Assembly (NCBI GenBank): GCA_934438085.1
Contig: CAKSBC010000001.1
Span: 161,997 to 225,996 of the forward strand
DNA length: 64,000 bases
Direction: 5' to 3'
Source of the DNA: an uncultured Lachnospiraceae bacterium
Lineage (GTDB): Bacteria > Bacillota > Clostridia > Lachnospirales > Lachnospiraceae
Numbering within the stretch: position 1 is the first letter of the stretch; each line of letters starts with the position of its first letter. The position numbers and the translations under genes are program-made. The notes under the pieces were generated by a model. It saw nothing but the letters and a program-made list of their open reading frames with translations, had not been told where the DNA came from and ran no database searches. Below, piece by piece: positions 12,680 to 46,505 of the stretch.

Positions 12680-14572
12680 TTATTCTATCCATGCCCCTAC
12701 TGGGATTCCGTTCGACTCATATTCATTTAAATAATAATCTGTTCCGTTGATATTACGGTTTCCTGTAAGCATTGCTCCGTAGATTCCGGACGAAGTGCTT
12801 TCATTAAGATAATACCAATATCCGTTAAGCTGAACCCAGCCTGTACGCATCTTATGATCGTCACCGAAATAATACCATTCTGATTTTATCTTCTTCCAGC
12901 CTGGACCAGCAGCGACACCCTTCGACTCAAAGTAGTACCATGCACCGTCTATGTCCTGCCATCCGGTTATACCTGAGCCGTCCGTATCAAGATAAAGCAT
13001 CTCGCCCTTGTTATTGCTCGTGATAGAGCCGCTGTCTGTAGAGCTCGATACCATTCCCTGCTTTTCTGTAAATGTTACCGCCTCACTGCTGAGATAATAA
13101 GAGCTCTTATTTGATGAAGCAACAGCCGTTATTTCAAACCTGACATTAGAAATCTCATCAACCTCAACATAATCAGCAGCATCAAGCTGGTTCTGATCAA
13201 CATTAATACTTCTGCTCCTTGCTCTTGTGAGGTTTTCAGTCTCATCATCCTCTGTAAACAGAGTCAGATCACTGTTTTCTTCATATTCATACTCTTCGTC
13301 ATAATATATTTTGACATTATAACGTGAAGCATTGCTCACCTTGCTCCAGTGCAGCACATAGCCGTTGTCAAGATATACCTTCTGCGGCTTTGCAAGCTTT
13401 GTCTTTGCAACATATTCAAATTTAGCAGTTCTTGTAAATGCATCACCGGACTGTGATTTATAGCTTGCATTTGAACCTCTGATCCTGCATCCGCTTCCGA
13501 ACTGATAGCCGTTGATTGCTGCAAGAGTTATCGTGACATCAACCTTTGTACCCGGTGACCAGGTCTCCGGCTGCTTAGAATAATGTACGCTTTTAAGCTC
13601 CGTGTTTGACGGAACATTTATATCAATTGAACGAACTGTGCCCGGCGCAGCATTAGTATCTTCTTTAAATGTTACTGACACGCTTGTCAGCTGCTTTGTA
13701 GAAGATGAATACGTCACGCTGCCTACATCGGTTTTACTGAGCGCAGAGGTATTTGTATCTGAAATATTAGTATTTCCCTGCTTATCACCTGAAGCCTTGC
13801 TGTTGCCCGCTCCGCCCTGCCAAAGGTCACCGTCGGCATTAAAATAATAGTATTTTCCGTTTATCTGATGCCAGCCCGTAAGCATAATTCCGTCAGCTCC
13901 GAAATAATACCACTTCTTATTAATATTAAGCCACTGATTCCTTGCATATGAAGTTTTTGAAAGCTTATAGCGCCAGGTTCCGTTAGGATTGACTATCCAG
14001 CCAAGCTTTTCCTCAAGATTCATTGCTTTTCCCGGTGTTACTCCTGTAGAGCCTCCCGACGGCTTCTTATAATTAACCGACTTTCTGATAGCTGAAAGCA
14101 TATCGCTGTCGACCTCTAACGGCTCATCAGAGACTACCTTAAGCGAAGCTCCGCCCTTTTTCGGATAAACCGTGAAATAATAATTGCCTGTGCCGTTTTG
14201 AGCTATTATAAAGCTGAGATCTGTCTGAAATTTTGATGTTGTTATAGAATTCTTTTTAACCTTATTGCTCTCTTTTATCGAACTTTTGTACACGTCAATG
14301 ACAAAGGATGTCTTTTCTGCTGTCTCATCCCATACAGCAATAGCTCTGCCGGTGGAGTCATCATATTCCCAACCGCATGAGCCTATTCCGTAATCGACTG
14401 AGTTTACTGCATATGCAGGAATTGTGAATATCTCTGACGTAAAAGGTATTACTGCCATACTTAATGAAATCACAAAAAAGGCCATAAACGCCATGACCTT
14501 TTTACGTTTACTGCCATAATTTACAGTCACTCTATATAGTTTTCTGATTTTTCTTATATTCTTTTTATCCAT
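12680..14572 (-). CDS. Cell-wall-binding-repeat (CW_binding_1 / choline-binding type) surface protein
   Basis: N-terminal signal/anchor, then two blocks of GW-x-NG-x-WYYF-type repeats (GWHQINGKYYYFNADG, GWQDIDGAWYYFESKG, GWVQLNGYWYYL) flanking an Ig-like middle region. It starts 24 nt after the last pilin-like gene. Confidence 0.85.
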   Translation of the reverse strand: MDKKNIRKIRKLYRVTVNYGSKRKKVMAFMAFFVISLSMAVIPFTSEIFTIPAYAVNSVDYGIGSCGWEYDDSTGRAIAVWDETAEKTSFVIDVYKSSIKESNKVKKNSITTSKFQTDLSFIIAQNGTGNYYFTVYPKKGGASLKVVSDEPLEVDSDMLSAIRKSVNYKKPSGGSTGVTPGKAMNLEEKLGWIVNPNGTWRYKLSKTSYARNQWLNINKKWYYFGADGIMLTGWHQINGKYYYFNADGDLWQGGAGNSKASGDKQGNTNISDTNTSALSKTDVGSVTYSSSTKQLTSVSVTFKEDTNAAPGTVRSIDINVPSNTELKSVHYSKQPETWSPGTKVDVTITLAAINGYQFGSGCRIRGSNASYKSQSGDAFTRTAKFEYVAKTKLAKPQKVYLDNGYVLHWSKVSNASRYNVKIYYDEEYEYEENSDLTLFTEDDETENLTRARSRSINVDQNQLDAADYVEVDEISNVRFEITAVASSNKSSYYLSSEAVTFTEKQGMVSSSTDSGSITSNNKGEMLYLDTDGSGITGWQDIDGAWYYFESKGVAAGPGWKKIKSEWYYFGDDHKMRTGWVQLNGYWYYLNESTSSGIYGAMLTGNRNINGTDYYLNEYESNGIPVGAWIE

Positions 14573-15243: not shown

Positions 15244-15663
15244 TTACTTTAATTCGTAATAGCAGAAATTATCCGTAACGTCAGAGGTTCCTCTTTTATG
15301 CTTTTCGATGCTTAAGCTTGCATCAGCACTGAACTTAGTCGCTGAGCTATCGACCTCATAAACACCGTCAGAATCGGAATCATTTTCAGCCCTTTGTATC
15401 GTAACTGAGGTATCTTTTTTTTGTGTGATACCTTCGTCCATATCTATCGCCGTCACCATGTCTTCTGCTTTTTTATTGATCTTTGCAGATGTAACGACAG
15501 AGCCTGAAAACACAACAAATACCAGTGACATTACAAGTACAGCTACCAATGTCTCTGTAATGGATTCACCGCATTTTGAACCAAGCTTCCTTCCTATAAA
15601 GCAAGCCTTATTTTTCCTGTTCATAATGATTATTCTTTTTTTCTCTCTGCTTAAATAATCCAT
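15244..15663 (-). CDS. Pilin-like protein with a prepilin-type signal; start possibly at 15624
   Basis: ...GSKCG / ESITETLVAVLVMSLVFVVF, with Gly at -1, Glu at +5 and a hydrophobic helix. Starting at the internal Met (15624) gives a 19-aa leader. Confidence 0.7.
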   Translation of the reverse strand: MDYLSREKKRIIIMNRKNKACFIGRKLGSKCGESITETLVAVLVMSLVFVVFSGSVVTSAKINKKAEDMVTAIDMDEGITQKKDTSVTIQRAENDSDSDGVYEVDSSATKFSADASLSIEKHKRGTSDVTDNFCYYELK

Positions 15664-15673
15664 TATCTGTCTG

Positions 15674-16456
15674 TTATGAAGCTCCTCTTAATATCTTTGC
15701 GTTTTTTCCGCTTATAAAGCTGCATTCTGTTGTAGTTATGGTTGCGGTATAGGTATCAGTACCCCCGTCAACCGCCTCCTTTGTTCTTTTTTCTGTCGTT
15801 TTTGTAACAGAACAATTACATGTAAAAGGAAGTGTGATGTTCATCTTATAGTTTTCACTTCCGGCACTTTTATTAAGTGACAGATCTACAGTCATATTTA
15901 TCTGAGTTGTTCCTATTTCGCCATCATTCTCACGAATACCCAAAAAGCCTGATCCGTTTGCATTTTCCACACCTGAAAGCCTTACTGTAACAAGGACGTC
16001 ATCAAGGACACCATCCGATGCAGCAGCATCTGCTTTAATAATGTAATTTATGCCCTTTGAGCCGCCGGTGCCGTTTGAGCCTCCGAGCGGAGCCGCTTTA
16101 TTCATATTGTCATGAAACCAGTCTATAAGCTCAGCCTTTAAAGGATTATCTCTGCCTGCTTTGGTATATTTATCCTTAAAATCTAAATTTATGGTTGAAT
16201 CTGACTTATCACTATCATCTATTTCCTTATAGTTAATGCTGATGCCAACCAGACATTCCTCCATTAGCTTTGCCGCTGAGCTCACAGTCAGATAATTCTG
16301 CTCTGCCTGCTGGTTACGCTTTACTCTTCCGATGTTTGACAATGCAGAATTTAGCATTATTACAGAAACTACGGTGACAACAATCAGTGCAAAGAGAGCC
16401 ATCGCAAGTGATGCCCCTCTTTGCTCCGATATTTTGTTTTTGATACATTTAATCAT
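15674..16456 (-). CDS. Pilin-like protein lacking Glu+5 (PilX/GspK-like minor pseudopilin)
   Basis: MIKCIKNKISEQRG / ASLAMALFALIVVTVVSV has a prepilin-like leader with Met instead of Glu at +5. It overlaps the end of the giant gene by 8 nt. Confidence 0.65.
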   Translation of the reverse strand: MIKCIKNKISEQRGASLAMALFALIVVTVVSVIMLNSALSNIGRVKRNQQAEQNYLTVSSAAKLMEECLVGISINYKEIDDSDKSDSTINLDFKDKYTKAGRDNPLKAELIDWFHDNMNKAAPLGGSNGTGGSKGINYIIKADAAASDGVLDDVLVTVRLSGVENANGSGFLGIRENDGEIGTTQINMTVDLSLNKSAGSENYKMNITLPFTCNCSVTKTTEKRTKEAVDGGTDTYTATITTTECSFISGKNAKILRGAS

Positions 16457-19400
16457 TCTCTGTACCGTATGTAATATCCTCGTCTGTAATCACTTCCGGA
16501 TCGATTATAGAACGCACTGAGTTACTGCCTTCATCAGACATTACTTCTATAGCTTCGTCTATAGTCTCTGACATAATGTCATTGTCAGCATTATCTATGC
16601 CTTCATTCATAGTATCAGCTGCATTGCTGTCTGCACCATTAAAGCTCTGTACAGATGGCCCTGAAGTACCGACATTATTATGGTAAATAACTCTTGCTTC
16701 GTTTGAAATGCTTCCGCCCGGGCCTGCCGGTCCTATACCTTCTCCATTCTCGGAGTTTGGCAAAGAACTCTCCGCTGAATTAGTATCTGCATCAATTGTA
16801 CTATCTTCGGCATTTTCTGCTGCAGCTAAGCTATCAGCATCAGCTGTATCTATTATGTCATTTGTCGCAATTGCGACAGCTTCTGCCCTTGCCATGCTGG
16901 CCGCAGACATTAATGCAAATATTTCATCCGCAGAAACATCGTATCTCGCATAAACCTTTGTCGGAACAGTATCACCGCTGTCCGTAATAAAGTGTCCTTC
17001 GGAATCGGTTATAGGCTCACCGCCGTCAGGCTCAGTCCAATATCCGCTGAATGTATCGATACCCACAGGTTCCTTGTGTGCCAGTGCATTTACTGCCGGA
17101 ACAGTTAATGTGTTATCTGTATAAAATGCTCCGTCAAGGTAACAAAGTGTACCTGCTTTTGCATAGCTTCCGTTAGCTCCGATTTTGTCATAAAACGTAA
17201 TTTCAGCACATTTCCATGCAGCAGAAGCCTTAACTGAAGATTTAAGCATTGCATCAGAAGTAAGTAACTCTCCGTTATCTAATACCCAGCCGGCAAAGCT
17301 TCTTCCTCTGTTTATCGAAGCATCATTTTTAACCATGCTTGTCCAATAATCAAGATTGGCCTTTGCTGTACTGTTATCATCTACTGCCTTAGCATAAGAA
17401 ACATTTACATTATGATTTCCTCCTGCATCAAGACGTTCATCATCAGCATAAAGCATTACACTTACGGACTGTGCTGCTCCTTCTGGACGTGTCATAACCT
17501 CAAGCTCAAGCATTTTGTATCGTGCATTGACCGGCTTGGTGTTCTTTAAGCTATCGCTATCCCAGCGAGGATATATATCCTTACTTGAAACAATCACTCT
17601 TGCCTCGCCTTCATTTCGTCCGGTAACCTTTAAAAAAATGCTAAGCTTCTTTCCGGTGCTGTCTGTTTCCTCTGAAAGCTCACATTGTACCTTATTCTTG
17701 GACTCAATATTCTGGTAACCAACAGTCCAGTTAGCTAATGTCGTTGGGATTTCATCACCGTTCTTATTTTTGGCTGTTATTACATATTCAACCGATTCTC
17801 CTCCATAAAGAGTGGCATTCTTAGGATCTCGCGCATTTATCTCCACAGACATTTCGGCTGTTACTGATATCTCAAGCTCTTTTGTATAATCGATTCCTTC
17901 TGAATTATAGCTTATGGTTAATGTCTCATAGCCTTCTGAAAGTCCCTGTACCTTAAGTGTATAATATCTCTTTCCCGGTTCCTTTACATCGGTCATTTGC
18001 ACAAAGCTGCATCTTACAGTATCAAAATTACCGCTTGAGGTTGATACACTTGGAGCAGCTGTCATATCAACAAGATTACCATCCTGATAATACTTAACAG
18101 CAATATCCTGCGTTCCGGTATCTGAAGTAAGCAAATCTATCTCCGCCGACTTGATATCAGTGAACAAGCCGCCGCTAAGTGGCCATGCACCGTAATGAAC
18201 ATAGACATTTTTCGCCTCGCCTGACATAGGGAAGTCTGCATCATAGAATGGATTTTCCTGAGTTACGATAGCCGGGAATGGGTAGTTCTCACCTTTAAGG
18301 AATTTATCAGCACCCGGGAAGCTGTACTTTCCGTCAATCCTTGCTCCGCCGTTTTCTGTAGTGGTTACATTCGCAAAGCCCGGTTCTCCGACCTTAAGGC
18401 TGTTTAACAGGTGACCGTTTTTCATATTATCATAGCTTAATGCCATCACATTCAGCAGATTTCCGTCAGGAATGGTAGTACCGTAGGCATTTAAGTATTG
18501 AATGTCATACTTTCCCTTATTTTCAAACTTAGTTGGTTTAATTACTATTGTTTCATCATTTGCATATTCACGATAATAATAGCAATTCTTAATTAATATC
18601 GTTTCTACATCAGCAGCACTGCTATCATTTAAATCTCCAACTGTAGCTATCGGTCTTACTACTTTGACATCGTCAGCAACCTTAGGCAGACTCATATATG
18701 TGTAGCTATTATATATTTCCGGCTGAGGTTTAATATATGATGAAAGATGTCCAATGCCATTCTCTAATGTTCCAAAATTTGTAAGCTTATCAAGTCCCTG
18801 TGCCTTGAACCATTCGCCTCCTACAATTCCGCCTATATATATATCTACATTTGAAGTTTCATCACTGCTGATACTTCCTCCACAGTAGCTTCCTGATATA
18901 TTTCCGGGGCATATACCAACCATGCCGCCAACGCATATAGCCTGATTCTCTTTTTTCTGATATATGCTTTTTATTACAATATCATTAACTGAGCTACAGT
19001 TAACTATATTCGTACCGCAGAAGCCTGCAAGTCCTCCTATATTGGCATTTCCTGGGCCTGCTTTGGTTCTATTGTTTTCTATAGTATAGCCTGCTGAAGC
19101 GCAGTTTTTCACAACACCCTGAGCTGCAAAGCCAACAAGACTGCCAAGACTGTACCAGTTAGTTCCGTCTGCATTGGCACTTATCTTATTATTAGAATCT
19201 GAATACAAGATAATATTCTGAAGATTTGCGCATACCGCAGTTCCAAAAAGTCCTGCAGTCTGGGACTTACTGTTAATACTTATATTCTGAATCTTATATG
19301 ATCTGCCGTCAAAATAACCGTTAAAATATGCTGTATATGGTTGTGAAAAGGTATCATATATCCAATCCTCAACTGTGTCTTTATTATCATAAAGACTTCC

Positions 19401-22400
19401 TATAGGAGTAAAAATATTACCTGATCCATTTGTATCGTGTGTTTGTGCCCAATAGAAATTATGAACATAATTACTATTATATCTAACTTCTTCATTATAA
19501 CCTGGATGAAAAGCAGCAAACCAAGATAGATATGTGTAGTGGTCTTCAGTTTCTCTTGATTTGTAACAGTTATCAACCCATTGCCATTCCCATTCACTTT
19601 TCCACCAATTCCAAACTTTTTTATATCCACCTATAATCGATTCATTTGTTTCAGAACCAATATCAGCTGACGTCACCTCAGTCGTTGCATTAAGCTTATC
19701 CCATCTCCAGTTTATGTTCTGCAGCTGTGAGGTAGATCTTATCTCAAATGGGAATCCATTTTCCTTTGATGGTTTGCCATCTGCACCATAGCCTGTTCCG
19801 TGTCCGAGCTTCGCCTTTGCTTCATCAGGGGTAGTAATTTCATCCGCACCAAGTAAGACCATGCTCTTTCCGAAGAATGGTGTGAAAATATATTGAATTT
19901 CCTTTGTTCCGTAATTAAGAGTACACGAAGCATAGGCTGAATCTCCGATAAGGAACATTCCGCCGTCATCTGCTTTCTGTCTGCTTGTATTTAGTGTTTC
20001 AGGCGTTACACCGCTTTCAGTAGTTCTGTAAAGCTCGAATTTATAGCTTCCGCCAAACTGCTTTTCAAATGCATTTTTAGCTGCACCTACACAAATGGAA
20101 TCTGTTGTTGCATCCTTAGCATTGACAAAGCGTGACTTATTCCCGAGATTTACATTATCCCAGTATGCTGAAGGACCTGAATCCGATGCATTTTCAGGCT
20201 TATAGTAAAATCCGTAGCCATAAGCAGTTATGACACCTCCGTCATCATGAGACTCACAAAGTGTAGAATACTCATTACCCTCGTCATCTATCATATAAAA
20301 ATGATATCCGTTGTTTGAGCCTTTTTCTTCATGTTCCCAATAGATAAAGCCCATTCTTCCGAAGCTTGAATCATACGCCCATTCTCCGTAATGCACTCTT
20401 GTTCCGTCGTTCTTAGTAACGACAGCAGGATATGGATATTTTACGGAATTATCATTATTGGTGCATGCATGATAAAATGAATCCTCAGCATTTCCAAAAG
20501 CAGTGCTTAAATCATTTTCCAAGGTATAGGTAGTAGTATCACTGACATCAATAAGTTCTATAAGCTGAGCGCTTGTAGCAGACTGTGCCGGAAGGTTTGA
20601 ATCTGTATCATAATTATATGGACGAACACTGTCTACATAGTAGTAGTTTCCTCCGTTAAGATACATGCATCTTTCCATGGTTCCGGTAATACCCTGACTG
20701 AATGCACTTATATTGCCGCTGCTTAAATTGCTGCTGGTATATGCAGCAGCACAGTAAGAGCCCTCTATCTTACCGTTGTTGATGCCGGCAAAGCCTCCGA
20801 GCTTAAATTCTCCGGAGGTATTCGAGGTTCCCGCATCTATATATGCGAGGCCGTAGCAGTCTATGATTTCTCCGCTTCTTGAATTATAAGCAGTAAAGCT
20901 TCCGGTGTAGGCATCGGAGGTTCCGTTTGAGAACACCTCAATAAGCGGAACATCTGCTGAGCATTTGCTTATTGTTCCTTCGTTATAGCCTACAAGTCCT
21001 CCGACATAGACATCTGAATTTCCGTATGCGTAACCGCTTATGCTATAGCTTGCTGCAGCACAGTTTGTCACTGTACTTGCACTGTCAATATATCCTGCAA
21101 GCATACCGAGATATGCTTTTTCACCGTTATTCTGTGCGGCTTTTATGTTAGTAATGCTGAACTTATCAGCACTGCTGTAATCGGCCGCTATGACGATATT
21201 TTCAAGCTTTCCTCCCTTTACAAGTCCGAAAAGTCCTGAATATAAGCTGTTACCAGTACTGTGTATGGAGAATCCGGTGATAATATGGCCTCTGCCGTTA
21301 TATCCGGATCTGAAGCTTTCATCCTCGCTGCTTCCGTCAGCTATAGAACTTTGCACTCTGTTTTTTCCGATATCAGTAAGGCTTGTATATCCCGGACTTG
21401 CGCTCGCCCAATTATAATTTTTATAGTTAATGTCAAGCTCCTGATAGAAGTTCCTTCCCTCTACATCACCGGTCTTATTGTAGGCATCGTAGAACTTACT
21501 GAGCAGATACAGCTGTCTTGCAGATCTTATATAAATTCTTTCGTCCGCCATAGGTATCAGCTGTGCTGCCGAATCATTTTCTGCCTTATTGACAGACTTT
21601 GCAAAGTGCGGATTGAAGAAGTAATAATCTGTAGTACTTCCGTTTACAACTGATATTCTCTTATAGAAATGATCTATTAAATATCCTGTATCTATGTCTC
21701 CGCTGCCGTCAGTCTTAAGTCCGGCATTCGTTATTGCATCAGGAAGCAACAGCAGTACGGTCTTATCGTTCCAGCCGTCAGTTGTTGTAAATGCAAGCTG
21801 GCTGGCCTCAACTGTAACCTTGGTAAGTGCGCTTCTGTCATAGGTATTTCCGTTAAATGTAATACTTAAAGGAGCAGTATCGCTATATGCATCGGCATCA
21901 TAAACAAGTGCATATCCATCCGATATGACACTTATATTGTTGTTTTCATTAACAACTGTATCCTTATACAGCGTATCTGAGCTATTGCCGTAGAATCCCC
22001 ATTTTTCATATTTTCCATCAGAATAGTTCTCGAAATAAACAAGCGCTCCTGATTTGAAGTCCTTGTCTGCCCAGTCTCCGTAATGAACAGTTATTTTTGA
22101 ATTGCTCTTTATATGCGGATATTCGTATACCTTAAGAGCAAGGCCGCTCTTTAAATTGTACGGTCTGCTGTTTTCTGCCTTGGTATCAAATTCAAATATG
22201 CTTTTAGCCTCTGCACAGTCGTTAAGTGCATTATTAAGCTCATTAAGAACTCCGTCTGTACCTGTGCTCTTGAGCTTAGCTGATGCTACAGCTACACCGC
22301 CCATATTTTTTTTGCTGTTATTACAGTAATAAACGTTTGTAAAATTAGGATAACTTGTAGCTACAGTACTGTACTGATGTTGATGTGCGCTTACGTTGTA

Positions 22401-24518
22401 GCTGCTGCCGGTATCAAATACTGTATAAGAGCCTATGATATCTGAAATCGTTGTAGCAGTCTCTCCTGAACCTACGAAGCCTGCAGCCATCTCTGTATCA
22501 TTTTCAAATATTGCAAAGCCGGCACTGTAGGAGCCTATTATCTTGCTTTTTGCGTTATCGCCTCCTGCCGTATATCCGATAAGACCGCCTATTCGTCTTC
22601 CTGAAATGTAGCAGTCTGCATATGAACCGTTAATAATAAATCTTCGTTTTACCCAGCCTATAAGTCCGCCTGCACCTTTACCGTCCGTGCTGGTAGCAAC
22701 GACCGGGTCAATACCGGCCCTTATAACTGTTGATGCAAAGCTGTTAATGATTTCAGTATTAACATTTGCAACCCCGACAAGGCCTCCTGAGCTGTTTTCT
22801 GATTTTATAAAGGCATAGCTTTCATCCTTACCGTCATAATCGGAGGTATTAAGATAGACCTTGCAGTTAGAAATGGTTACAGGCTTACCTTTTCCCTCCC
22901 AGGCATCACTGTCAGAACCCAACTTTGACGCTAATCCGCCGGCATTAAGGTTATTGCTGCCGTTGGCCTTTAGACCTGTAAGCGTTATGTTCTTAAGCTC
23001 GCTTCCGTAGAAAACGCCGAATAAACCTGCATTTACTGAATCATTCGACTTCGGATAGTTTCCTATATCTATACCGTTAATTATATAGTTAGCTCCGTCA
23101 TAGCTTTTTAAGCCCTTGTCAGTGCTTTCTATTGGTGAGAATTTTCTGTTTCCGTATATTTTCTTCCAGCTAAACTTTCCTTCATCGGTAAAATCAATTT
23201 TCTCTGTCTGAACAGCAGAAACAAAGCTGAGCTTTTTAACTCCGCTTTTTGTATTCGGAATAGCTTCACCGATATGTGATGTGGTTGCGTCAAGATTCTG
23301 CAAATGCCTTCCGCAGGAAATCTTTGCAGTTGCGTCCTTATTTGAGGTGTCTGTACCGTCTGCAAACAAGCTGTTGACAACCTTGACATCAGGCATAGGT
23401 GAATTAATATTGTCGGATTCGTTTGTGCCTGTGACCTTGAAGCTTATCTCAAGATCCTCACCCGGAATAAAATTGCCTGTTTTTGATCCCGGTACATAGC
23501 TTATAGTCTGCCCCTTATCCGCAGAGCTTTGCTGTACGCTCGGAGCCTTACCGGAGCAGAAATTAGTATAGAACGAAAGATCATTTTCCGTTCCTATAGT
23601 ATCCTCAGTTACGAGTCTGTCTATGATCAAGCTCTTTGTTCTCTTGGTATTTCCGCCCATTAAGCCAATAAGCTCATAGCTGCAAGAGCTTTCACTGGTC
23701 TTTCCTGTAATGGTTATATAGTAGTTGACCTTTTTATTAATAAGCTTTTGCGGAAGCTCAGTTACAAAGTTGAGCTTTAGCTGTTCAGAGTTCGCTCCGG
23801 ATAAAGCAGAACCGCTGTCCCAGGAGATATAGTTTTTAATATCCTCTGTGCTTGAACCTTCTGTAATGCTGAAATTACCGAAGTAATATCCGACTCTTGC
23901 ATCGGTATTGTTTATACGATTCGCCTTGCTCTGTCTTATGGCATCGGTATCCGTTGTTGAAATGCTGCTGCCGTCCGGTTCATCATAGAACTTGTCAGGT
24001 GTATGATCGTCGTCCTCGCTGTAGAATACACCGTATACATAACCGTTTTCAGGATTAAATTCTATGACCCAGTTGTTGTTATAAATTTCTTCACTGACAG
24101 CATTCTCAGGAAGAATAAGTCTCTTAAGCTCTGTATTGCTGTTTGAATCACTTTCGAAAATGTCAGTTCCGGTCGCTGCCTTTGTCCAATTCTTATCAGA
24201 TCTTACTATGGTAAGAGTCTCTCCGTTCTTCCAGGTACTGCCATTTGTGGTTCCGTCATCCCAGTCTCCCGGGATAGTATTTCTTTTGATGACATCACTA
24301 AAACGAGCTGTATCCCCTGAAGAATACAGCTCTGTCAGTCTGTTTTGAGCCGCAGTATAGATAGTCCGGGCAGTTGTGTCCAGCTTCATCTGTCTAATAC
24401 TCTTTATTTGACTGAATATTCCCCCGATAGAGATTGCTCCTATTATCGCAATGATAGCGATAACAATAAGAAGCTCTGCGAAGGAATAACCCTTGCGGGA
24501 TCTTAGTTTATTGATCAT
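16449..24518 (-). CDS. Giant (2,689 aa) modular type IV pilin-like adhesin
   Basis: The N-terminus MINKLRSRKG / YSFAELLIVIAIIAIIGAISIGG is a class III signal. The body has many G-[GA]-[LMF]-[VIAF]-G GLUG-like repeats (AGGLIGW, VGGLVGY, NIGGLAGF, VGGMVGI, SGLFGLV). Near the C-terminus there are Ig-like segments and F-x-G-W/Y Listeria-Bacteroides-type repeats (SFAGWVLDNG, FSGYWTEPDG). There is no LPXTG. Confidence 0.85.
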   Translation of the reverse strand: MINKLRSRKGYSFAELLIVIAIIAIIGAISIGGIFSQIKSIRQMKLDTTARTIYTAAQNRLTELYSSGDTARFSDVIKRNTIPGDWDDGTTNGSTWKNGETLTIVRSDKNWTKAATGTDIFESDSNSNTELKRLILPENAVSEEIYNNNWVIEFNPENGYVYGVFYSEDDDHTPDKFYDEPDGSSISTTDTDAIRQSKANRINNTDARVGYYFGNFSITEGSSTEDIKNYISWDSGSALSGANSEQLKLNFVTELPQKLINKKVNYYITITGKTSESSCSYELIGLMGGNTKRTKSLIIDRLVTEDTIGTENDLSFYTNFCSGKAPSVQQSSADKGQTISYVPGSKTGNFIPGEDLEISFKVTGTNESDNINSPMPDVKVVNSLFADGTDTSNKDATAKISCGRHLQNLDATTSHIGEAIPNTKSGVKKLSFVSAVQTEKIDFTDEGKFSWKKIYGNRKFSPIESTDKGLKSYDGANYIINGIDIGNYPKSNDSVNAGLFGVFYGSELKNITLTGLKANGSNNLNAGGLASKLGSDSDAWEGKGKPVTISNCKVYLNTSDYDGKDESYAFIKSENSSGGLVGVANVNTEIINSFASTVIRAGIDPVVATSTDGKGAGGLIGWVKRRFIINGSYADCYISGRRIGGLIGYTAGGDNAKSKIIGSYSAGFAIFENDTEMAAGFVGSGETATTISDIIGSYTVFDTGSSYNVSAHQHQYSTVATSYPNFTNVYYCNNSKKNMGGVAVASAKLKSTGTDGVLNELNNALNDCAEAKSIFEFDTKAENSRPYNLKSGLALKVYEYPHIKSNSKITVHYGDWADKDFKSGALVYFENYSDGKYEKWGFYGNSSDTLYKDTVVNENNNISVISDGYALVYDADAYSDTAPLSITFNGNTYDRSALTKVTVEASQLAFTTTDGWNDKTVLLLLPDAITNAGLKTDGSGDIDTGYLIDHFYKRISVVNGSTTDYYFFNPHFAKSVNKAENDSAAQLIPMADERIYIRSARQLYLLSKFYDAYNKTGDVEGRNFYQELDINYKNYNWASASPGYTSLTDIGKNRVQSSIADGSSEDESFRSGYNGRGHIITGFSIHSTGNSLYSGLFGLVKGGKLENIVIAADYSSADKFSITNIKAAQNNGEKAYLGMLAGYIDSASTVTNCAAASYSISGYAYGNSDVYVGGLVGYNEGTISKCSADVPLIEVFSNGTSDAYTGSFTAYNSRSGEIIDCYGLAYIDAGTSNTSGEFKLGGFAGINNGKIEGSYCAAAYTSSNLSSGNISAFSQGITGTMERCMYLNGGNYYYVDSVRPYNYDTDSNLPAQSATSAQLIELIDVSDTTTYTLENDLSTAFGNAEDSFYHACTNNDNSVKYPYPAVVTKNDGTRVHYGEWAYDSSFGRMGFIYWEHEEKGSNNGYHFYMIDDEGNEYSTLCESHDDGGVITAYGYGFYYKPENASDSGPSAYWDNVNLGNKSRFVNAKDATTDSICVGAAKNAFEKQFGGSYKFELYRTTESGVTPETLNTSRQKADDGGMFLIGDSAYASCTLNYGTKEIQYIFTPFFGKSMVLLGADEITTPDEAKAKLGHGTGYGADGKPSKENGFPFEIRSTSQLQNINWRWDKLNATTEVTSADIGSETNESIIGGYKKVWNWWKSEWEWQWVDNCYKSRETEDHYTYLSWFAAFHPGYNEEVRYNSNYVHNFYWAQTHDTNGSGNIFTPIGSLYDNKDTVEDWIYDTFSQPYTAYFNGYFDGRSYKIQNISINSKSQTAGLFGTAVCANLQNIILYSDSNNKISANADGTNWYSLGSLVGFAAQGVVKNCASAGYTIENNRTKAGPGNANIGGLAGFCGTNIVNCSSVNDIVIKSIYQKKENQAICVGGMVGICPGNISGSYCGGSISSDETSNVDIYIGGIVGGEWFKAQGLDKLTNFGTLENGIGHLSSYIKPQPEIYNSYTYMSLPKVADDVKVVRPIATVGDLNDSSAADVETILIKNCYYYREYANDETIVIKPTKFENKGKYDIQYLNAYGTTIPDGNLLNVMALSYDNMKNGHLLNSLKVGEPGFANVTTTENGGARIDGKYSFPGADKFLKGENYPFPAIVTQENPFYDADFPMSGEAKNVYVHYGAWPLSGGLFTDIKSAEIDLLTSDTGTQDIAVKYYQDGNLVDMTAAPSVSTSSGNFDTVRCSFVQMTDVKEPGKRYYTLKVQGLSEGYETLTISYNSEGIDYTKELEISVTAEMSVEINARDPKNATLYGGESVEYVITAKNKNGDEIPTTLANWTVGYQNIESKNKVQCELSEETDSTGKKLSIFLKVTGRNEGEARVIVSSKDIYPRWDSDSLKNTKPVNARYKMLELEVMTRPEGAAQSVSVMLYADDERLDAGGNHNVNVSYAKAVDDNSTAKANLDYWTSMVKNDASINRGRSFAGWVLDNGELLTSDAMLKSSVKASAAWKCAEITFYDKIGANGSYAKAGTLCYLDGAFYTDNTLTVPAVNALAHKEPVGIDTFSGYWTEPDGGEPITDSEGHFITDSGDTVPTKVYARYDVSADEIFALMSAASMARAEAVAIATNDIIDTADADSLAAAENAEDSTIDADTNSAESSLPNSENGEGIGPAGPGGSISNEARVIYHNNVGTSGPSVQSFNGADSNAADTMNEGIDNADNDIMSETIDEAIEVMSDEGSNSVRSIIDPEVITDEDITYGTEND

Positions 24519-24523: not shown

Positions 24524-25162
24524 TTATTTACTTACTTCTCCTGCCAGACTCTCTAATACCGAGGTCTGATCATCTGCAGTTTTAGCATTGCTGCTGCCCG
24601 GATTCTTCCTGGCTTTCAGCGCTGCCTCCTGTTTACTTGTTACATACTCATAGTTTACAAGTGAAAGCGTAGAGCTCCACTGAGTATTCTGCTCATCACA
24701 GCTTGTGTTGAAGCCTGTTATGAGATATGTGTTTTTGCTGTCCTCTATGAGCTGTGCAATATATTCCGCAGCTTCTTTGGACTGTGTCTTGTAATTAATG
24801 GTAATTTCTCTGCGCATAACGCTGTCGGTGATAGTCTCGTCTCCGAAGCTTATGTCGAACTCATCTGCCATATCCATATAGACATTAAGTTCCTGAAGCA
24901 ACACCTTATTATTGCTGTATGTGGCAAGTGACTGAGGATCACCGCCTGCTTTTTCGTATATTACATCAAGCTCGCTCTGCATTTTGTTCATCTGCATAGC
25001 CTTAGCTGATGCTACGTCTATCTCGCTCTGCAGATCAGCTCTCTGATTGGCAAGATTTAATGTCTCACTTGCAACCGGTCCCTGAACGACAAAATAATAT
25101 GCCGCAAGTATGATCAGAATTCCAAGCAGTGCCAGCTCTCTTATAGATATTATTCTGTTCAT
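24524..25162 (-). CDS. pilO: Type IV pilus assembly protein PilO-like
   Basis: One N-terminal TM segment, then a coiled coil and a small globular domain. Its position directly after pilM-pilN and the 4-nt overlap with pilN support the call. The call rests on architecture and context. Confidence 0.6.
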   Translation of the reverse strand: MNRIISIRELALLGILIILAAYYFVVQGPVASETLNLANQRADLQSEIDVASAKAMQMNKMQSELDVIYEKAGGDPQSLATYSNNKVLLQELNVYMDMADEFDISFGDETITDSVMRREITINYKTQSKEAAEYIAQLIEDSKNTYLITGFNTSCDEQNTQWSSTLSLVNYEYVTSKQEAALKARKNPGSSNAKTADDQTSVLESLAGEVSK

Positions 25163-26130
25163 TGTCCCGCTCCCTGTAATGCTGCCATGCCTTCCTCAAG
25201 TGTTGCAAAGCCCTGAGGTGCGCTGTCCGGGTTTGATCCTATGATAACTGTATCTCCGCCGATATTCTGTACCTCGACATTGCTGCCGTTTGTTCCTTTG
25301 TTTCCGCCTGACTGCTGCAAAGAGCCGGCATTCTGTGATGCATTAGCATTGCTGCCGCTTCCTACGCTGTTATTGACTGCGCTTAAGGAACCGCCGTACA
25401 CGGCCTCAGCCTTTTTGGTATTGGCATCCTTATCGGCATTATCCTTAGCTTCTCTTGCTGCCTTGACCGCATTGGTATATTCTTCATATCTTGCGGCTCT
25501 TTCCTCTTCGCTAAGGCTGCTTACTGAGCCTGCTGCCAATACATCATCATCGTCTTCTTCCTTGACTGTAAAGATGATATAGCCTTCGACATCGATATTG
25601 TTAGTTCCCTTGGCTGTTGAAACCATGATCTCATCTATGTTGACCATGCTGTTTAATCTGTCCTGAATAGTATCGATATCCTCTAATGAAGACATGTCAA
25701 CTATAACACCGACCTGATTTCCTTCGATGCTGATGCTTGTAATGCTTCCGATGCCGTCCGTGCTTTCATCAAGCATATCAAATATACGCTCTCTGCCTAC
25801 AAGACCTGCCTCATCCTCTGATAAGTAGCTTGTAGTAAATCTCCTGTATTCCTCTAAGACTTCGTCATAATCAGCGATTTTCTCGTCAAGCTGCTCAAGC
25901 TGTGTCTTAAGTGCAGAATTCTGCTGCTGCAGCTGTGCTAACTTTGCAAGTCTGTCAACAACTCCGAGTCTGTATACTGCAAATACCACTATAATAAGAA
26001 ATACTGCAAGCGGAAGCACTACCTGAATGCTGTTTCCGTCCTTTTCTCTGACATAGAGGTTAATGTTTCTCTTTGACGGAAGCTTCTGTATGTTCTCTTC
26101 TTTTCTGAACTTTTCAAAAAATTTATTCAT
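25159..26130 (-). CDS. pilN: Type IV pilus assembly protein PilN-like with a low-complexity C-terminal extension
   Basis: Short cytoplasmic N-terminus with an INLY motif (PilM-binding type), one TM segment, a coiled coil, then an S/G/N/A-rich tail. It overlaps pilM by 8 nt. Confidence 0.6.
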   Translation of the reverse strand: MNKFFEKFRKEENIQKLPSKRNINLYVREKDGNSIQVVLPLAVFLIIVVFAVYRLGVVDRLAKLAQLQQQNSALKTQLEQLDEKIADYDEVLEEYRRFTTSYLSEDEAGLVGRERIFDMLDESTDGIGSITSISIEGNQVGVIVDMSSLEDIDTIQDRLNSMVNIDEIMVSTAKGTNNIDVEGYIIFTVKEEDDDDVLAAGSVSSLSEEERAARYEEYTNAVKAAREAKDNADKDANTKKAEAVYGGSLSAVNNSVGSGSNANASQNAGSLQQSGGNKGTNGSNVEVQNIGGDTVIIGSNPDSAPQGFATLEEGMAALQGAGQ

Positions 26131-27121
26131 CAGCGCTCACCGCCCCTATAGCCAGCACACAGCGTGCCGCAAGCTCATCATCCTCAGGTTTGCCCGGCAT
26201 CCAGTCCTCAATGCTTCTTTGCTTAAAGCCGATATAATCGAGAGACTGATCGATCTTATTTTCTATCCATTTACTGCTTCCGGTCCATGTCAGCTTATTA
26301 AGCTCTGAATCAGGATTCTCATATCTAAAGAAGTTGATAGTTTTTGTTATCTCAAGGCCGAGTCTGTCATATACAGAACGGCATCTGTCATTATCCAGAA
26401 CATTTTCATAGTTTGATGCTCTGTAGCTTGCTGCAAGGAACGGATCTATGCCATATATCTCTGCAATGATGCTGTCTATCTGCTCACAGCCTATATCAAT
26501 GACCTTAAATGCAGAAAGCTCCCCGTCCTTTATAATGCCGAGTATCGTGGAATTCATGCCTATGTTGCAGATGCATTCTTCCTTATCAAGCTTAGCTCCG
26601 TCCTTAACCGCTCTTCTTGCAATATTAAGGAGAGCCATCTCCGTCGGTATCGCTTCCTTAAGCTTAAGGCCTGATTTCTTCAGAACGGCGGCATAGTTAT
26701 CAAGTGTTTCCTTCTGTGCCGCAGCAGCCATAAGCTCCATCGTCACCGGATCACCGTTCTCATCAAGCTCTATATTTCTTACAGCATAGTCAAAATTATA
26801 TCTGAAGCTGTCACTTCCGACATAGTCCTTAAATTCATAAGGAAGATTAAGTCTTAACTGCTGATCAGACATGGCCGGCATTGAAATGATCCTAAAATAT
26901 GCCGTACTTAACGGAAGCACAAGAGCACAGGCGCGGCCTGTAAAATGCCCCCTGCGTTTGATATCCTTTAAAAATGATGAAAATGTCTCCTGTGATACTA
27001 TCTGATCATTCTTTACGAGATTCTCCGGCATGCGCTCTGAATACATGCGAAGTCCCTTTCCGTCAAACTGGGAAAGGCAGATCTCATTACTGTCAAACTG
27101 TATACCTATCAAATTCTTCAT
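26123..27121 (-). CDS. pilM: Type IV pilus assembly ATPase-fold protein PilM
   Basis: Actin/FtsA-like fold signature regions (IGIQFD..., NIGMNSTILGIIKDGE, IDIGCEQID) and the right length and position for PilM. Confidence 0.75.
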   Translation of the reverse strand: MKNLIGIQFDSNEICLSQFDGKGLRMYSERMPENLVKNDQIVSQETFSSFLKDIKRRGHFTGRACALVLPLSTAYFRIISMPAMSDQQLRLNLPYEFKDYVGSDSFRYNFDYAVRNIELDENGDPVTMELMAAAAQKETLDNYAAVLKKSGLKLKEAIPTEMALLNIARRAVKDGAKLDKEECICNIGMNSTILGIIKDGELSAFKVIDIGCEQIDSIIAEIYGIDPFLAASYRASNYENVLDNDRCRSVYDRLGLEITKTINFFRYENPDSELNKLTWTGSSKWIENKIDQSLDYIGFKQRSIEDWMPGKPEDDELAARCVLAIGAVSADE

Positions 27122-27160: not shown

Positions 27161-27955
27161 TTAAATAAACAGTGAAAGATACATATTTATTATCGGCTCT
27201 CCTATAAGTGCCGTGATCCATGCTGCTATGGCAATGGACGGTCCGAACGGAAATGCCTTGTTTGTTTTATTTTTACTGTTATAAAATGCTGCAAATATAA
27301 GTCCCGTAAAGCATGCTATTATCAGTAAAAGCAGTGTCTTAAGCGCTCCGAAGTGAAGCCCCAGCACCGCTATAAGCTTAATGTCTCCGCCTCCCATAGC
27401 TGTGCGTTTAAGTATCACCTCCATAATAAGTACAACTATAAGTAAAGGTACTGAAACAGCTAAAAAGCCTGTCAGCATTTCCTTTAAAACTGCCGTTCCT
27501 TCTAAAAGTCTCAAAAGTGATGCGGCGGCCATACCTATCAGCATACCGTCAGGTATCTCCATTATATCGATATCTACAAGCGATACAGTAAATAAAAGGC
27601 TGCCTACAAGTATAAAGCGCAGTGTATCAATAGTAAAGCCAAATCTTAATACGATACTTAAGTAAAGACACATGCAAATAAGCTCTGTCAGTGGATATCT
27701 TTTTGGTATTGATGCTCCGCAGTAACGGCAGCGCCCCTTTAAAAATAGCCAGCTGAAAAGCGGTACAAGATCTGTAGCCCTTAGAACATGTCCGCATTCC
27801 GGACAATGGCTCCTTCCCTTAGCAATACTCTCATTATTAGCGACTCGCCACGCCCATGCATTTAAGAAGCTTCCCATGCAAAGACCTATGACGCAGGTGA
27901 TAAATATAAGATATAATGCTGCGCCAATGGAAAAATCAAAAATATACAATTTCAT
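27161..27955 (-). CDS. pilD: Prepilin peptidase (A24 family)
   Basis: Zinc-ribbon-like CPECGHVL...RCRYCGASIPKRYPLTEL, plus catalytic Asp regions VDIDIMEIPDG and GGGDIKL. The start is set at MKLYIF, because the longer TTG-initiated frame runs through a terminator. Confidence 0.9.
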   Translation of the reverse strand: MKLYIFDFSIGAALYLIFITCVIGLCMGSFLNAWAWRVANNESIAKGRSHCPECGHVLRATDLVPLFSWLFLKGRCRYCGASIPKRYPLTELICMCLYLSIVLRFGFTIDTLRFILVGSLLFTVSLVDIDIMEIPDGMLIGMAAASLLRLLEGTAVLKEMLTGFLAVSVPLLIVVLIMEVILKRTAMGGGDIKLIAVLGLHFGALKTLLLLIIACFTGLIFAAFYNSKNKTNKAFPFGPSIAIAAWITALIGEPIINMYLSLFI

Positions 27956-27961
27956 TACTTT

Positions 27962-27972
27962 ATTATAACAAA
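27962..27972 (-). promoter_or_regulatory. Extended -10 promoter (TGTTATAAT) immediately upstream of pilD
   Basis: Minus strand reads TTTGTTATAATAAAGTAATG. The TATAAT ends 6 nt before the pilD ATG and there is no Shine-Dalgarno sequence in between. Confidence 0.35.
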
Positions 27973-27992
27973 TAAAAGCCGCAAATGCGGCT
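27966..27992 (-). terminator. Rho-independent terminator of the Na/Pi transporter gene
   Basis: Minus strand reads AGCCGCATTTGCGGCT followed by TTTTATTTGTT. Confidence 0.75.
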
Positions 27993-28033
27993 CTTATCAT
28001 ACACAAATTAAAAAAATTTGCAGCTAAACCTCA

Positions 28034-44490: not shown

Positions 44491-45486
44491 TTATGCATTA
44501 AAATCAAAGTATGAGCCTATACCGGCTTTGAGTGCATTTTCATAAATAGCCTTTGCCATGGCAAGATCCTGTACACCCATTCCGACAGTATCGTAAACAG
44601 TGATTTCCTCATCATTCTCGCGGCCCTTCTTTGTGCCCATGATGATTTCTCCGATTTCTGCATAAATGTCGTCCTTTGTAATGACTCCGTCTTTAATTGC
44701 ATTGTAAGTATCTCCGCAGCTTGATGCCGCCTCAATGCTGTCATTTACGATCTTTGTGCCATCAAAGCAGTTGGTGTAAAGCTCCTGCTTGCCGACAGTA
44801 TCTGTGCCTATCTCGGTTATGTGAGTGCCCGGCTTAAGCCATTCCTTATTGATAGCAGCTCCCTTTCTGGCAAGCGTAACGCAAACAATAATGTCTGCCT
44901 TTCTTGCACCTTCCTCAGGAGTCTCACAGCCGTGGAAAATAAGCTCAGGGAATTCCTTGGACATCTCAGCTATAAATGCATCATTCTCACCATCAAGCCA
45001 TCCGAAGCAGTAAACCTCCTTCAGCTTTCTTACACGCATTGTAGCTCTTAAAGCAGCTTTACCGATACGTCCGGTACCGAATGCAAAATAAACCTCTGCA
45101 TCCTTTCTTGCAAGATAATTATTGGCTATAGCGGCACCTGCTGCTGTACGAAGGTTTCTTATATAGTTAGCCTCCATGACACATGATAAAAGTCCGGTTT
45201 CTGCATCATACAGATATACCATGTTAAGATTGGTCGGAAGTCCTTTTGCGGCATTGCCGTCAAATCCGCCGCCTGACGACTTCATGGAGAATAAGCCCGC
45301 ACTTTCATCAAGACAGGTCTTAAAATCATAGCCTGTATGTGTTCCCGGCTTTATAAGGTTTTGTATAGGCGGCTGTACTACATTTCCGCTGTTAAACGAA
45401 ACATATCCCTGCTTTACAGACTCATATATTTCATCAAGATCTATAAGTTTTCCAACATCTGAGTTATTTAAAAGTAATGTCTGCAT
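44491..45486 (-). CDS. Ornithine cyclodeaminase/mu-crystallin family protein (copy 1)
   Basis: OCD_Mu_crystall pattern with a Rossmann motif (FGTGRIGKA). The start at MQTLLL is preceded by AAGAGGAAA. Confidence 0.88.
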   Translation of the reverse strand: MQTLLLNNSDVGKLIDLDEIYESVKQGYVSFNSGNVVQPPIQNLIKPGTHTGYDFKTCLDESAGLFSMKSSGGGFDGNAAKGLPTNLNMVYLYDAETGLLSCVMEANYIRNLRTAAGAAIANNYLARKDAEVYFAFGTGRIGKAALRATMRVRKLKEVYCFGWLDGENDAFIAEMSKEFPELIFHGCETPEEGARKADIIVCVTLARKGAAINKEWLKPGTHITEIGTDTVGKQELYTNCFDGTKIVNDSIEAASSCGDTYNAIKDGVITKDDIYAEIGEIIMGTKKGRENDEEITVYDTVGMGVQDLAMAKAIYENALKAGIGSYFDFNA

Positions 45487-45503
45487 TTTTATTTCCTCTT
45501 TTA

Positions 45504-46505
45504 TCAATCTTCAGGTTCAACCTCTTCATCCTTATAGAATTTTCCTATAAGGTCAATGTCATAGTTGCCGGATGTAAGCACACAGGCAACATTTTCATCA
45601 GCCTCTGTCTTGATTTTTCCCTCAAGAAGTGCCGCAACAACTACTGCCGAGGTTGGCTCTGCAACAAGATGTGCATACTTTCCTATAATCTTCACAGCCT
45701 CTGCAATATGATTTTCTGAAACTATAACGATCTCATCTACATATTTATCAATGATCGGATAAGGATTTTCTGTAGGATATGAGCATCCTATTCCGTCAGC
45801 AAGTGAAGGCTGCGATGTCATTCTCGTAGGACGTCCGTTAAGTCTGCTGAGATAATAACCGCAGGAAGCTGCGACCTGAACGCCTATTACTCTTACCTTA
45901 GGATTGCTTTCCTTTATTGCAGTTGCAATTCCTGACATCAGTCCGCCGCCTCCGATAGGCACTATAACCGTATTGATCTCAGGCATATCCTCAAGTATCT
46001 CAAGTCCTATCGTTCCCTGACCTGCCATAACAGAATAATCATCAAAGCCGTGAACAAGTGTATATCCATGCTCCTTTATCTCATCGGCAACCTTTTTAAC
46101 TCTGGACTGATAGTCTCTGTCCCACAATATGCAGGTTCCGCCACGTCTCTCACAGTTTTCGATTTTACCCTTTGGTGTATCTCTCGGCATAACTGCATAG
46201 GCATTAATACCGAACATCTTTCCTACATATGCACAGGCTGCCGCATGATTGCCGGAAGAGCTGAAAATGATTCCTTTTTTTCTCTCCTCTTCGCTCAGCA
46301 TAAGGACCTTATTAAAAGCGCCTCTCGCTTTAAATGCACCTGTCACCTGCAGCATTTCAGGCTTAAGATAAACCTTGCAGCCAAGCAGCTCGTCCATATC
46401 TGCTTCTCTTAAAAGCGGTGTTCTGGTTACATATGGTTTGATCCTTGCTGCTGCATCCTTTATGTCCTGTAAAGTGAGCGGATTTTTTTTAACGTTCTCT
46501 GACAT
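45504..46505 (-). CDS. PLP-dependent threonine/serine dehydratase family protein (fold type II)
   Basis: PLP-lysine motif VTGAFKARGAFNK, SSGNHA and a GGGGL glycine loop. Confidence 0.88.
   Translation of the reverse strand: MSENVKKNPLTLQDIKDAAARIKPYVTRTPLLREADMDELLGCKVYLKPEMLQVTGAFKARGAFNKVLMLSEEERKKGIIFSSSGNHAAACAYVGKMFGINAYAVMPRDTPKGKIENCERRGGTCILWDRDYQSRVKKVADEIKEHGYTLVHGFDDYSVMAGQGTIGLEILEDMPEINTVIVPIGGGGLMSGIATAIKESNPKVRVIGVQVAASCGYYLSRLNGRPTRMTSQPSLADGIGCSYPTENPYPIIDKYVDEIVIVSENHIAEAVKIIGKYAHLVAEPTSAVVVAALLEGKIKTEADENVACVLTSGNYDIDLIGKFYKDEEVEPED

Follow-up and report, generated by a model that had tools for sequence, protein, structure and literature searches.

The type IVa pili of diderm bacteria carry a large adhesin, PilY1/PilC, of ~1,000–1,200 amino acids, which sits on the tip priming complex PilHIJK (FimU-PilVWX). 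PilY1 is not a pilin, and it docks non-covalently through its C-terminal beta-propeller (IPR008707). A second design is found in Streptococcus sanguinis, where PilB, with a von Willebrand factor A (vWA) module, and PilC, with a lectin module, are modular type IV pilins (PMC8179133; PMC9934059). Raynaud et al. 2021 argued that modular pilins are likely exposed at the tip, and the most extreme multi-domain modular pilin that they named has 860 residues (PMC8179133). At the tip, minor pilins make up a complex whose cap is a subunit without Glu5, assembly starts with this complex and filaments grow from tip to base; an HIJK-like set of four minor pilins is common to type II secretion systems as well (PMC10191384). 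Here, we analyse a 64,000-nucleotide stretch of contig CAKSBC010000001.1 from an uncultured Lachnospiraceae bacterium, referred to as the window, which encodes a protein of 2,689 residues, the giant. We conclude that the giant is probably a modular type IV minor pilin within a tip-located priming complex, acting as the adhesin of the pilus.

The proposed mechanism has four steps. The N-terminal hydrophobic helix would put the prepilin into the membrane, where the co-encoded prepilin peptidase PilD would cut after Gly10 and probably N-methylate Tyr11. The ~215-residue pilin module would then join three smaller pilins encoded downstream, K, I and J, in a four-minor-pilin complex that primes assembly on the PilMNO platform. 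Because pili grow from tip to base, this complex would stay at the distal tip. The remaining ~2,470 residues, comprising immunoglobulin (Ig)-like parts, three GLUG modules and a variable C-terminus, would be shown at the fibre end as an adhesin, and the giant would fill the role that the non-pilin PilY1/PilC has in diderm bacteria. We infer PilD cleavage, pilus incorporation, tip location, adhesive function and a ligand from the evidence below. The tip location would agree with the tip-complex model of minor pilins, the Glu5-less subunit being encoded by the next gene downstream.

Prepilin signal, pilin module and four-pilin cassette

The giant's gene lies at 16449–24518 on the minus strand, with an ATG start, 2,689 codons and no internal stop. 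A first-pass annotation, made from the letters of the window alone, had reported this frame as uninterrupted, and so it is; the strand had been left unstated. The N-terminus, MINKLRSRKG↓YSFAELLIVIAIIAIIGAISIGG (the arrow marks the predicted cleavage site), has a 10-residue basic leader with Gly10 at -1 and Glu15 at +5, and its class III signal, MINKLRSRKG↓YSFAE-LLIVIAIIAIIGAISIGG, places Tyr11 at +1. The sole hydrophobic segment of the protein comprises residues 8–41. All parts of the claimed prepilin signal are present (leader, Gly at -1, Glu at +5 and hydrophobic helix), and they are kept in homologues. The same annotation had called the N-terminal helix the only visible anchor, and we likewise found no LPXTG-type motif and no other hydrophobic segment. 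A sortase substrate is ruled out by the missing LPXTG; the giant has no C-terminal hydrophobic segment, and its tail is acidic and low in complexity.

The signal and the giant size co-occur across the family. A search of a collection of 5.8 billion proteins returned 378 matches, the best 120 of which we treat as the closest relatives; these are 2,049–3,251 residues long, with identities down to 29%. In all 120, the first ~25 residues hold a prepilin-type signal, in the pattern G↓F/Y-T/S-x-x-E, with one A↓FTLAE, and this speaks against the alternative named beforehand, that homologues would show an ordinary uncleaved signal anchor. A profile of the pilin module (residues 1–218) was also scored against 1.84 billion cluster representatives (50% identity), where at least 335 protein clusters share the module at E ≤ 1e-30, the majority with lengths of 1,700–5,147 residues. 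Among 141 new top matches, 100 have 1,700 residues or more, the longest has 5,147, and about all carry the signal when motif variants and gene starts at internal methionines are allowed. Glu5 (Glu15 of the precursor) is invariant in a 26-sequence alignment.

The pilin module expected at the N-terminus is supported, with a length of ~215 residues and not the ~180 first estimated. AlphaFold2 models of the N-terminus, built with a 24-sequence alignment, give residues 1–218 an alpha1 helix at 13–67 (55 residues) and a beta-sheet head that extends to ~215 (predicted template modelling score, pTM, 0.75), with strands at 102–105, 149–155, 160–167 and 210–213. W150, E153, Y162, G210 and Y211 are the invariant residues of this head. 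Compared with the Protein Data Bank (PDB), the family profile of residues 1–218 matches type IV pilins almost exclusively (E = 4e-9 to 1e-5), and its alignment by hhalign with the family of the small pilin J extends over 142 columns, well past the helix (probability 97.5%, E = 6e-12). We computed the ratio of non-synonymous to synonymous substitution rates (dN/dS) against the nearest species, whose protein (locus L006) is 91% identical; the pilin module (residues 1–220) is the most constrained region of the giant (dN/dS = 0.06).

The three small open reading frames downstream (260, 139 and 188 residues) had been described as pilin-like, and pilin-type N-termini are indeed present in all three. 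Members of the K family weakly match the N-terminus of GspK (24 of 31) or ComGG (6 of 31). K shares with GspK and ComGG a pilin-type signal without Glu5, for which the expected role is to cap the tip complex; the GspK match itself reaches 17 bits against a curated cut-off of 130 and covers just the N-terminal ~58 residues, and the K-family profile finds no solved GspK in the PDB. By analogy, K is predicted to be the cap. Pfam N_methyl is matched in 20 of the 29 members of the I family, whose profile gives a marginal PDB match (E = 0.034) and no GspI assignment. For J, 24 of 32 family members match N_methyl, and the family profile matches S. sanguinis PilE1 in the PDB (8pfb, E = 1.8e-5, profile positions 13–136), which is a major pilin and not GspH or GspJ. 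The giant, K, I and J are several co-encoded minor pilins, one of them without Glu5, as in the HIJK-type core set. The profile matches do not pair them one to one with GspH/I/J/K or PilH/I/J/K. We compared 80 related loci from different species-representative genomes, plus four from an exact protein look-up: K, I and J follow the giant in most of the 80 and in all four, and in most loci the cassette comes directly after pilMNO and is preceded by pilB-(pilT)-pilC-pilA-pilD-pilM-pilN-pilO.

That Glu5 is invariant and the pilin head highly constrained points to true incorporation into a filament and not to mere membrane anchoring. In the contrary reading, the giant is a surface adhesin tethered to the membrane, its pilin-like N-terminus serves as a signal-anchor only and never polymerises, and the protein spans the wall from the membrane. 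Such a reading draws on the helix being the only anchoring device, on the absence of pilB, pilC and a major pilin from the window, and on the ~2,470-residue extended body, which might cross the wall without a fibre. We consider it unlikely, however, since Glu5 is invariant across the family, a mere anchor has no need of the globular pilin part that is most constrained of all, and most loci encode three more pilins, including the Glu5-less cap, usually joined to a full pilB-pilT-pilC-pilA-pilD-pilMNO cluster.

A related reading makes the giant the cargo or tip of a short pseudopilus, resembling that of type II secretion systems, which pushes it through the wall and perhaps releases it. The four-minor-pilin set is shared with those systems, K resembles GspK, and moving a ~290-kDa protein across peptidoglycan would need some such force. 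Most related loci, however, encode beside the cassette a PilT-type retraction ATPase and a major pilin of 110–200 residues, which are typical of retractile type IVa pili, and the giant has a pilin module of its own whereas the substrates of type II secretion are separate proteins. The pseudopilus, improbable on these grounds, differs from a giant pilin at the tip of a type IV pilus mostly by the length of the fibre.

Several observations weigh against a giant pilin at the pilus tip. The check with prepilin-signal hidden Markov models (HMMs), suggested by the first-pass annotation, was split: NCBIfam TIGR02532 barely accepts the giant (16.4 bits, cut-off 16.3), but Pfam N_methyl places it just below the gathering score (19.2 bits versus 21.2, E = 8.6e-4). 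Homologues exceed the N_methyl cut-off, at 22.9–30.9 bits. The head of the pilin module is modelled at a predicted local distance difference test (pLDDT) score of just 55–70, and a Foldseek search of the predicted residues 1–218 against the PDB found no significant solved pilin (best E = 0.8; Escherichia coli GspH ranked ninth, E = 3), probably because of the long isolated helices and the low-confidence head. No PilB, PilC, PilT or major pilin is encoded in the window; any pilus of this organism would need an ATPase, a platform protein and a major pilin encoded elsewhere in the genome. No ligand-binding domain of known specificity was detected in the giant. A ~290-kDa tip would also have to pass through thick peptidoglycan, and cleavage, piliation and adhesion are predicted from sequence and models.

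The body of the giant

Beyond the pilin module, the giant alternates Ig-like parts, GLUG modules and regions between them (Table 1). A Foldseek search of residues 1–460 against the PDB gave weak Ig-type matches only, none at E ≤ 0.001, and residues ~220–2100 have no PDB match at E < 0.1 in searches with the single sequence or the full-length family profile. Three GLUG modules follow a common frame, which starts with R-x-x-x-Q-L-x-x-L/I, continues through GLUG-like turns and ends with Y-P-x-P...V-H-Y-G-x-W. M1 opens at an invariant GRHLQNLD and closes at ...VHYGDW, M2 runs from RSARQLYLL to ...VHYGEW, and M3, which contains the family alignment's best-conserved blocks of 50 residues, runs from RSTSQLQNI to ...VHYGAWP. 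Their profiles align with one another by hhalign (M1 with M2, probability 99.6%, E = 7e-24; M2 with M3, 99.8%, E = 1e-29; M1 with M3, 99.0%, E = 6.5e-18). Judged by these profiles, the modules are paralogous and together form a conserved core of ~1,700 residues. They occur in exactly the order M1-M2-M3 in 232 of the 245 large family members. The threefold repetition is visible only by profile-profile comparison; a self-BLAST of the giant found no internal repeat at E ≤ 1e-3.

The first-pass annotation had counted more than a dozen repeats of the pattern G-[GA]-[LMF]-[VIAF]-G. That exact pattern occurs seven times, against a mean of 0.12 and never more than two in the shuffled giant; a relaxed pattern yields 13 occurrences, grouped into three blocks. 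Pfam Glug does not bear the claim out either, as the giant stays below threshold (18 bits versus 20.5); it is above threshold in two tested homologues. Ig-like segments and Listeria-Bacteroides-type repeats had been proposed for the part beyond the GLUG-like repeats. The Ig-like portion and the F-x-G-W/Y motifs are there, but Flg_new has no Pfam match in the giant; homologues match it significantly (39.7 to 141.5 bits) at the corresponding place in their C-terminal part. For the region after M3, the family profile matches two ‘surface layer protein’ chains in the PDB, 4uid (E = 2e-6) and 4uj7, which we take to be Ig-like domains. With a pilin module and domains foreign to pilus biology, the giant is a modular pilin in the sense of Raynaud et al. 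2021.

Selection along the gene follows this architecture. The whole gene has a dN/dS of 0.14; the ratio is 0.34 in I2 (residues 1385–1584), 0.26 in the second Ig-like region (residues 2117–2360) and 0.50 in the tail (residues 2541–2689). The gene is functional, with purifying selection along its whole length; the carrier is constrained and the periphery more plastic.

The GLUG motif also occurs in streptococcal IgA1 proteases, and polysaccharide lyases and hydrolases account for many beta-helix proteins. One could accordingly read the giant as an enzyme displayed on a pilus, either an IgA protease of the M26 type or a beta-helix enzyme that degrades glycans, and Raynaud et al. read the combination IPR012902-IPR011493 as a predicted M26 peptidase (PMC8179133). 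We regard an enzyme as very unlikely. Neither HExxH nor HxxEH occurs anywhere in the giant, no peptidase or glycosidase is matched in Pfam or NCBIfam, and the 2,299-position family profile finds, among solved structures at E < 0.1, only pilins and the two surface-layer-protein chains. We rejected the M26 IgA1-specific metallopeptidase as a candidate on the missing motifs and the lack of a peptidase HMM or PDB match, the GLUG motif alone being in common. The likeness to streptococcal surface proteases, as first described, holds for the GLUG motif and fails for the HExxH motif and the peptidase match. The M26 prediction is probably wrong for the giant family, because the GLUG motif is its sole basis and neither HExxH nor a peptidase domain is present.

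Family, distribution and locus organization

The giant family is collinear over ~2,300 residues, with more than 150 invariant positions that include Glu5. An artefact of assembly or annotation, in which genes were fused or a pseudogene is decaying, might be feared in a window that appears metagenome-assembled, as very long repetitive frames are prone to mis-assembly, but it can be dismissed in view of this collinearity, the dN/dS of the whole gene, the absence of internal repeats by self-BLAST that could mislead assembly, and the finding that 3 contigs carry the identical protein, relatives sharing 88% identity are full length and clusters of 2,288 and 2,358 residues are intact on more than 10 contigs each. 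The fusion artefact considered in the first-pass annotation is thus contradicted. Size differences among members lie C-terminal of M3, and a 4,743-residue member carries Flg_new there at 141 bits. Short family members may be fragments truncated by the ends of contigs.

A scan that took one genome from each species found a giant pilin encoded in at least 142 species-representative genomes. The carriers are labelled mostly Lachnospiraceae and Oscillospiraceae, and also Acutalibacteraceae and ‘Clostridiaceae’ from digesters; the assemblies that contain family members are from human gut, rabbit, rumen and anaerobic digesters. The nearest protein in the scan, from the metagenome-assembled genome (MAG) ‘Lachnospiraceae bacterium SUG126’, shares 96% identity with the giant across residues 1–460. 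Among the cultured carriers are Hominenteromicrobium mulieris CLA-AA-H250, Vescimonas sanitatis MH37-1, Neopoerus faecalis and Oscillibacter sp. MSJ-31. Lachnospiraceae and Oscillospiraceae rank among the most abundant bacteria in human and animal guts, and hardly any work exists on their type IV pili. A conserved giant adhesin borne by a pilin would give them a testable mechanism of attachment, and the cultured carriers make experiments feasible. We give even odds to a wider proposal, that gut and rumen Clostridia own a distinct type IV pilus tip in which a priming minor pilin is extended into a fibre of 200–550 kDa, with a GLUG shaft of ~1,700 residues and a swappable C-terminal end.

One MAG, CANRGZ01 (Lapin-033__bin20), has two giant-pilin loci, L046 and L064, whose products are 3,245 and 819 residues as called and almost identical at the N-terminus. 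A single genome may therefore encode paralogous or alternative tip pilins, much as the Kil pilus of Myxococcus has alternative tip complexes of minor pilins. Five further loci (L018, L020, L038, L040 and L072) lie in bins labelled Moraxellaceae, Flexilinea, Bacteroides stercoris, Bacteroidaceae or Coriobacteriaceae. As their gene content looks Clostridia-like, mis-binning is a likelier explanation for these labels than horizontal transfer.

The order pilD-pilM-pilN-pilO, giant, three small pilin genes is as first reported (Table 1), PilN and PilO being assigned without a significant HMM match. The distance from the end of pilD to the start of the giant, 2.64 kb, also agrees with the report of a pilD gene upstream in the same gene string. 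The N-terminal A24_N_bact domain of PilD is Cys-rich (CPECGH...CRYCG), and a Na/Pi cotransporter gene lies upstream of pilD. The PilN-like and PilO-like frames have no significant match in Pfam or NCBIfam, the former giving just weak coiled-coil matches in Pfam; the counterpart of the latter in the Hominenteromicrobium locus (L001) weakly matches T2SSM. The genes are tightly packed: the PilN-like frame overlaps pilM by 8 nucleotides, and 5 nucleotides separate the pilO stop from the ATG of the giant, whose own stop overlaps the start codon of K (ATGATTAA). In the lineage of the window and its nearest relatives, pilD-pilMNO is all that adjoins the cassette. Scans of the window for promoters and terminators gave counts no better than chance.

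Table 1. Features of the giant, its pilin cassette and the adjoining assembly genes (nucleotide positions in the window; residue numbers refer to the precursor of the giant; the arrow marks the predicted cleavage site)
Feature	Position	Strand	Evidence
pilD, prepilin peptidase	27161–28006	minus	Pfam A24_N_bact 107 bits, Peptidase_A24 51 bits
pilM, actin-like assembly protein	26123–27121	minus	Pfam PilM_2 53.3 bits; TIGR01175 E = 9e-22
PilN-like bitopic protein	25159–26130	minus	Position and similarity to PilN-position frames of related loci
PilO-like protein	24524–25162	minus	Position and similarity to PilO-position frames of related loci
Giant, leader peptide MINKLRSRKG (residues 1–10)	24489–24518	minus	Predicted PilD cleavage after Gly10
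Giant, pilin module (residues 11–218)	23865–24488	minus	AlphaFold2, profile matches to solved pilins, hhalign to J, dN/dS
Giant, Ig-like beta-sandwich (residues 225–394)	23337–23846	minus	AlphaFold2 all-beta, block-mean pLDDT mostly 75–96 from ~240
Giant, GLUG module M1 (residues 395–822)	22053–23336	minus	Five GLUG-like turns; hhalign
Giant, inter-module region I1 (residues 823–989)	21552–22052	minus	Conserved; no Pfam or PDB match
Giant, GLUG module M2 (residues 990–1384)	20367–21551	minus	Best Pfam Glug stretch at residues 1171–1189; hhalign
Giant, inter-module region I2 (residues 1385–1584)	19767–20366	minus	No domain match; fastest-evolving part of conserved core
Giant, GLUG module M3 (residues 1585–2116)	18171–19766	minus	Five GLUG-like turns; hhalign
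Giant, Ig-like domains (residues 2117–2360)	17439–18170	minus	Family-profile match to 4uid, 4uj7; mapping approximate
Giant, variable C-terminal region (residues 2361–2540)	16899–17438	minus	FAGW and FSGY motifs; Flg_new position of homologues
Giant, low-complexity Ala/Asp/Ser/Glu-rich tail (residues 2541–2689) and stop	16449–16898	minus	Composition; alignment occupancy 0.24–0.36
K, minor pilin, 260 residues	15674–16456	minus	Signal ...QRG↓ASLAM, no Glu5
I, small minor pilin, 139 residues as called	15244–15663	minus	Signal ...CG↓ESITE, Glu at +1 and +5
J, classical minor pilin, 188 residues	14597–15163	minus	Signal ...NKG↓ISLTE, with Glu5

Directly downstream of J, a gene at 12680–14572 (minus strand) encodes a 630-residue protein with choline-binding (cell-wall-binding) repeats. 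A 603-residue counterpart with the same repeats occupies the same position in the L002/L003 lineage, whose giant pilin is 37% identical. This protein might be a wall-associated accessory of the pilus system, or just a neighbour. In the Hominenteromicrobium locus (L001, 19150–21896), a response-regulator/HD/GGDEF protein and an Hpt protein follow the cassette and a hybrid histidine kinase precedes it, a hint that cyclic-di-GMP or a phosphorelay may control the pilus.

Other features of the window concern different functions. At 5466–8030 (minus strand), an 854-residue protein combines a very long Lys/Glu-rich coiled coil, an N-terminal half of acidic low-complexity sequence, a single transmembrane segment and, at the C-terminus, a YkuD L,D-transpeptidase domain (78 bits), an architecture unusual for a peptidoglycan cross-linking enzyme. 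A gene for a pyridoxal phosphate-dependent enzyme lies between two paralogous ornithine cyclodeaminase/mu-crystallin genes at 44491–47738 (minus strand). Cumulative GC skew drops monotonically over positions 1–64000, and nearly all genes of at least 100 codons are on the minus strand, as would fit a single replichore that is read opposite to the direction of replication.

Relation to described systems

Modular pilins as a kind are already known; the giant family is apparently undescribed. In the searchable literature, we found no description of its size, its three-module core, its position in a four-pilin cassette or its breadth among gut and rumen Clostridia. In the literature on Clostridium perfringens, ‘large pilin’ refers to the size of a locus and not to that of a protein. 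Dataset S1 of Raynaud et al. 2021 lists the combinations IPR012902-IPR011493 (N_methyl plus GLUG, 6 proteins) and IPR012902-IPR013378 x2 (9 proteins) (PMC8179133). These proteins are very probably members of the giant family or fragments of them; they are catalogued only, and the size, the three-module core, the cassette and the breadth among Clostridia are not described there. RefSeq names one homologue ‘GLUG motif-containing protein’, and neither this name nor the peptidase reading conveys the pilin nature of the family.

The tapirins of Caldicellulosiruptor, also Clostridia, are beta-helix cellulose adhesins encoded beside a pilus locus; a role in attaching them to the cell surface is proposed for their conserved N-terminal part, and their C-terminal domain alone has 38.4 kDa (bioRxiv 10.1101/359786). 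Tapirins are far smaller than the giant, and a prepilin signal has not been reported for them. No tapirin chain, such as the Calkro_0844 beta-helix domain, is among the PDB chains matched by the giant-family profile, and tapirins may serve as a functional analogy only, without detectable homology.

The modular pilins PilB and PilC of S. sanguinis are closer in design. Both systems belong to monoderm bacteria, and both join a class III signal and a small pilin module to grafted domains, although past the N-terminal helix we found no sequence similarity between the giant and these pilins. S. sanguinis PilB and PilC replace or join an HIJK-type minor-pilin complex (PMC10191384). The two designs differ in scale and in content. 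PilB has ~50 kDa and one grafted domain, whereas the giant has ~290 kDa and at least eight structural regions. The graft is a single recognisable binding domain in the S. sanguinis modular pilins and a conserved three-module GLUG core with a variable end in the giant. S. sanguinis has three pilins (PilA, PilB and PilC), and the cassette described here has four, including a Glu5-less cap. The first-pass annotation had placed the giant far beyond the characterised modular pilins in size, in agreement with the 860-residue extreme of the published survey (PMC8179133), and the family as a whole reaches 3–6 times that length. In the giant, the ‘carrier plus effector’ plan of modular pilins is scaled up to a megaprotein, which tests the limits of the pilus machinery and of the Gram-positive wall. 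If the wider proposal of a distinct pilus tip is true, such giants would have to be pushed through that wall by extension of the pilus, and they would be a major unrecognised determinant of the attachment of abundant commensals to plant fibre, mucus or other cells.

Like PilY1/PilC, the giant would be a large adhesin (a prediction in its case) that works with a four-minor-pilin complex, and both are operon-mates of minor pilins. The giant has no match to the PilY1 beta-propeller (IPR008707 / Neisseria_PilC) in Pfam, NCBIfam or PDB-profile searches. The two arrangements differ in how the adhesin is held: PilY1 is a separate protein bound non-covalently, whereas the predicted adhesin of the giant is covalently part of a pilin. 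Under the wider proposal, the members of the giant family would be by far the largest pilins known, and a covalent, pilin-borne functional stand-in for PilY1.

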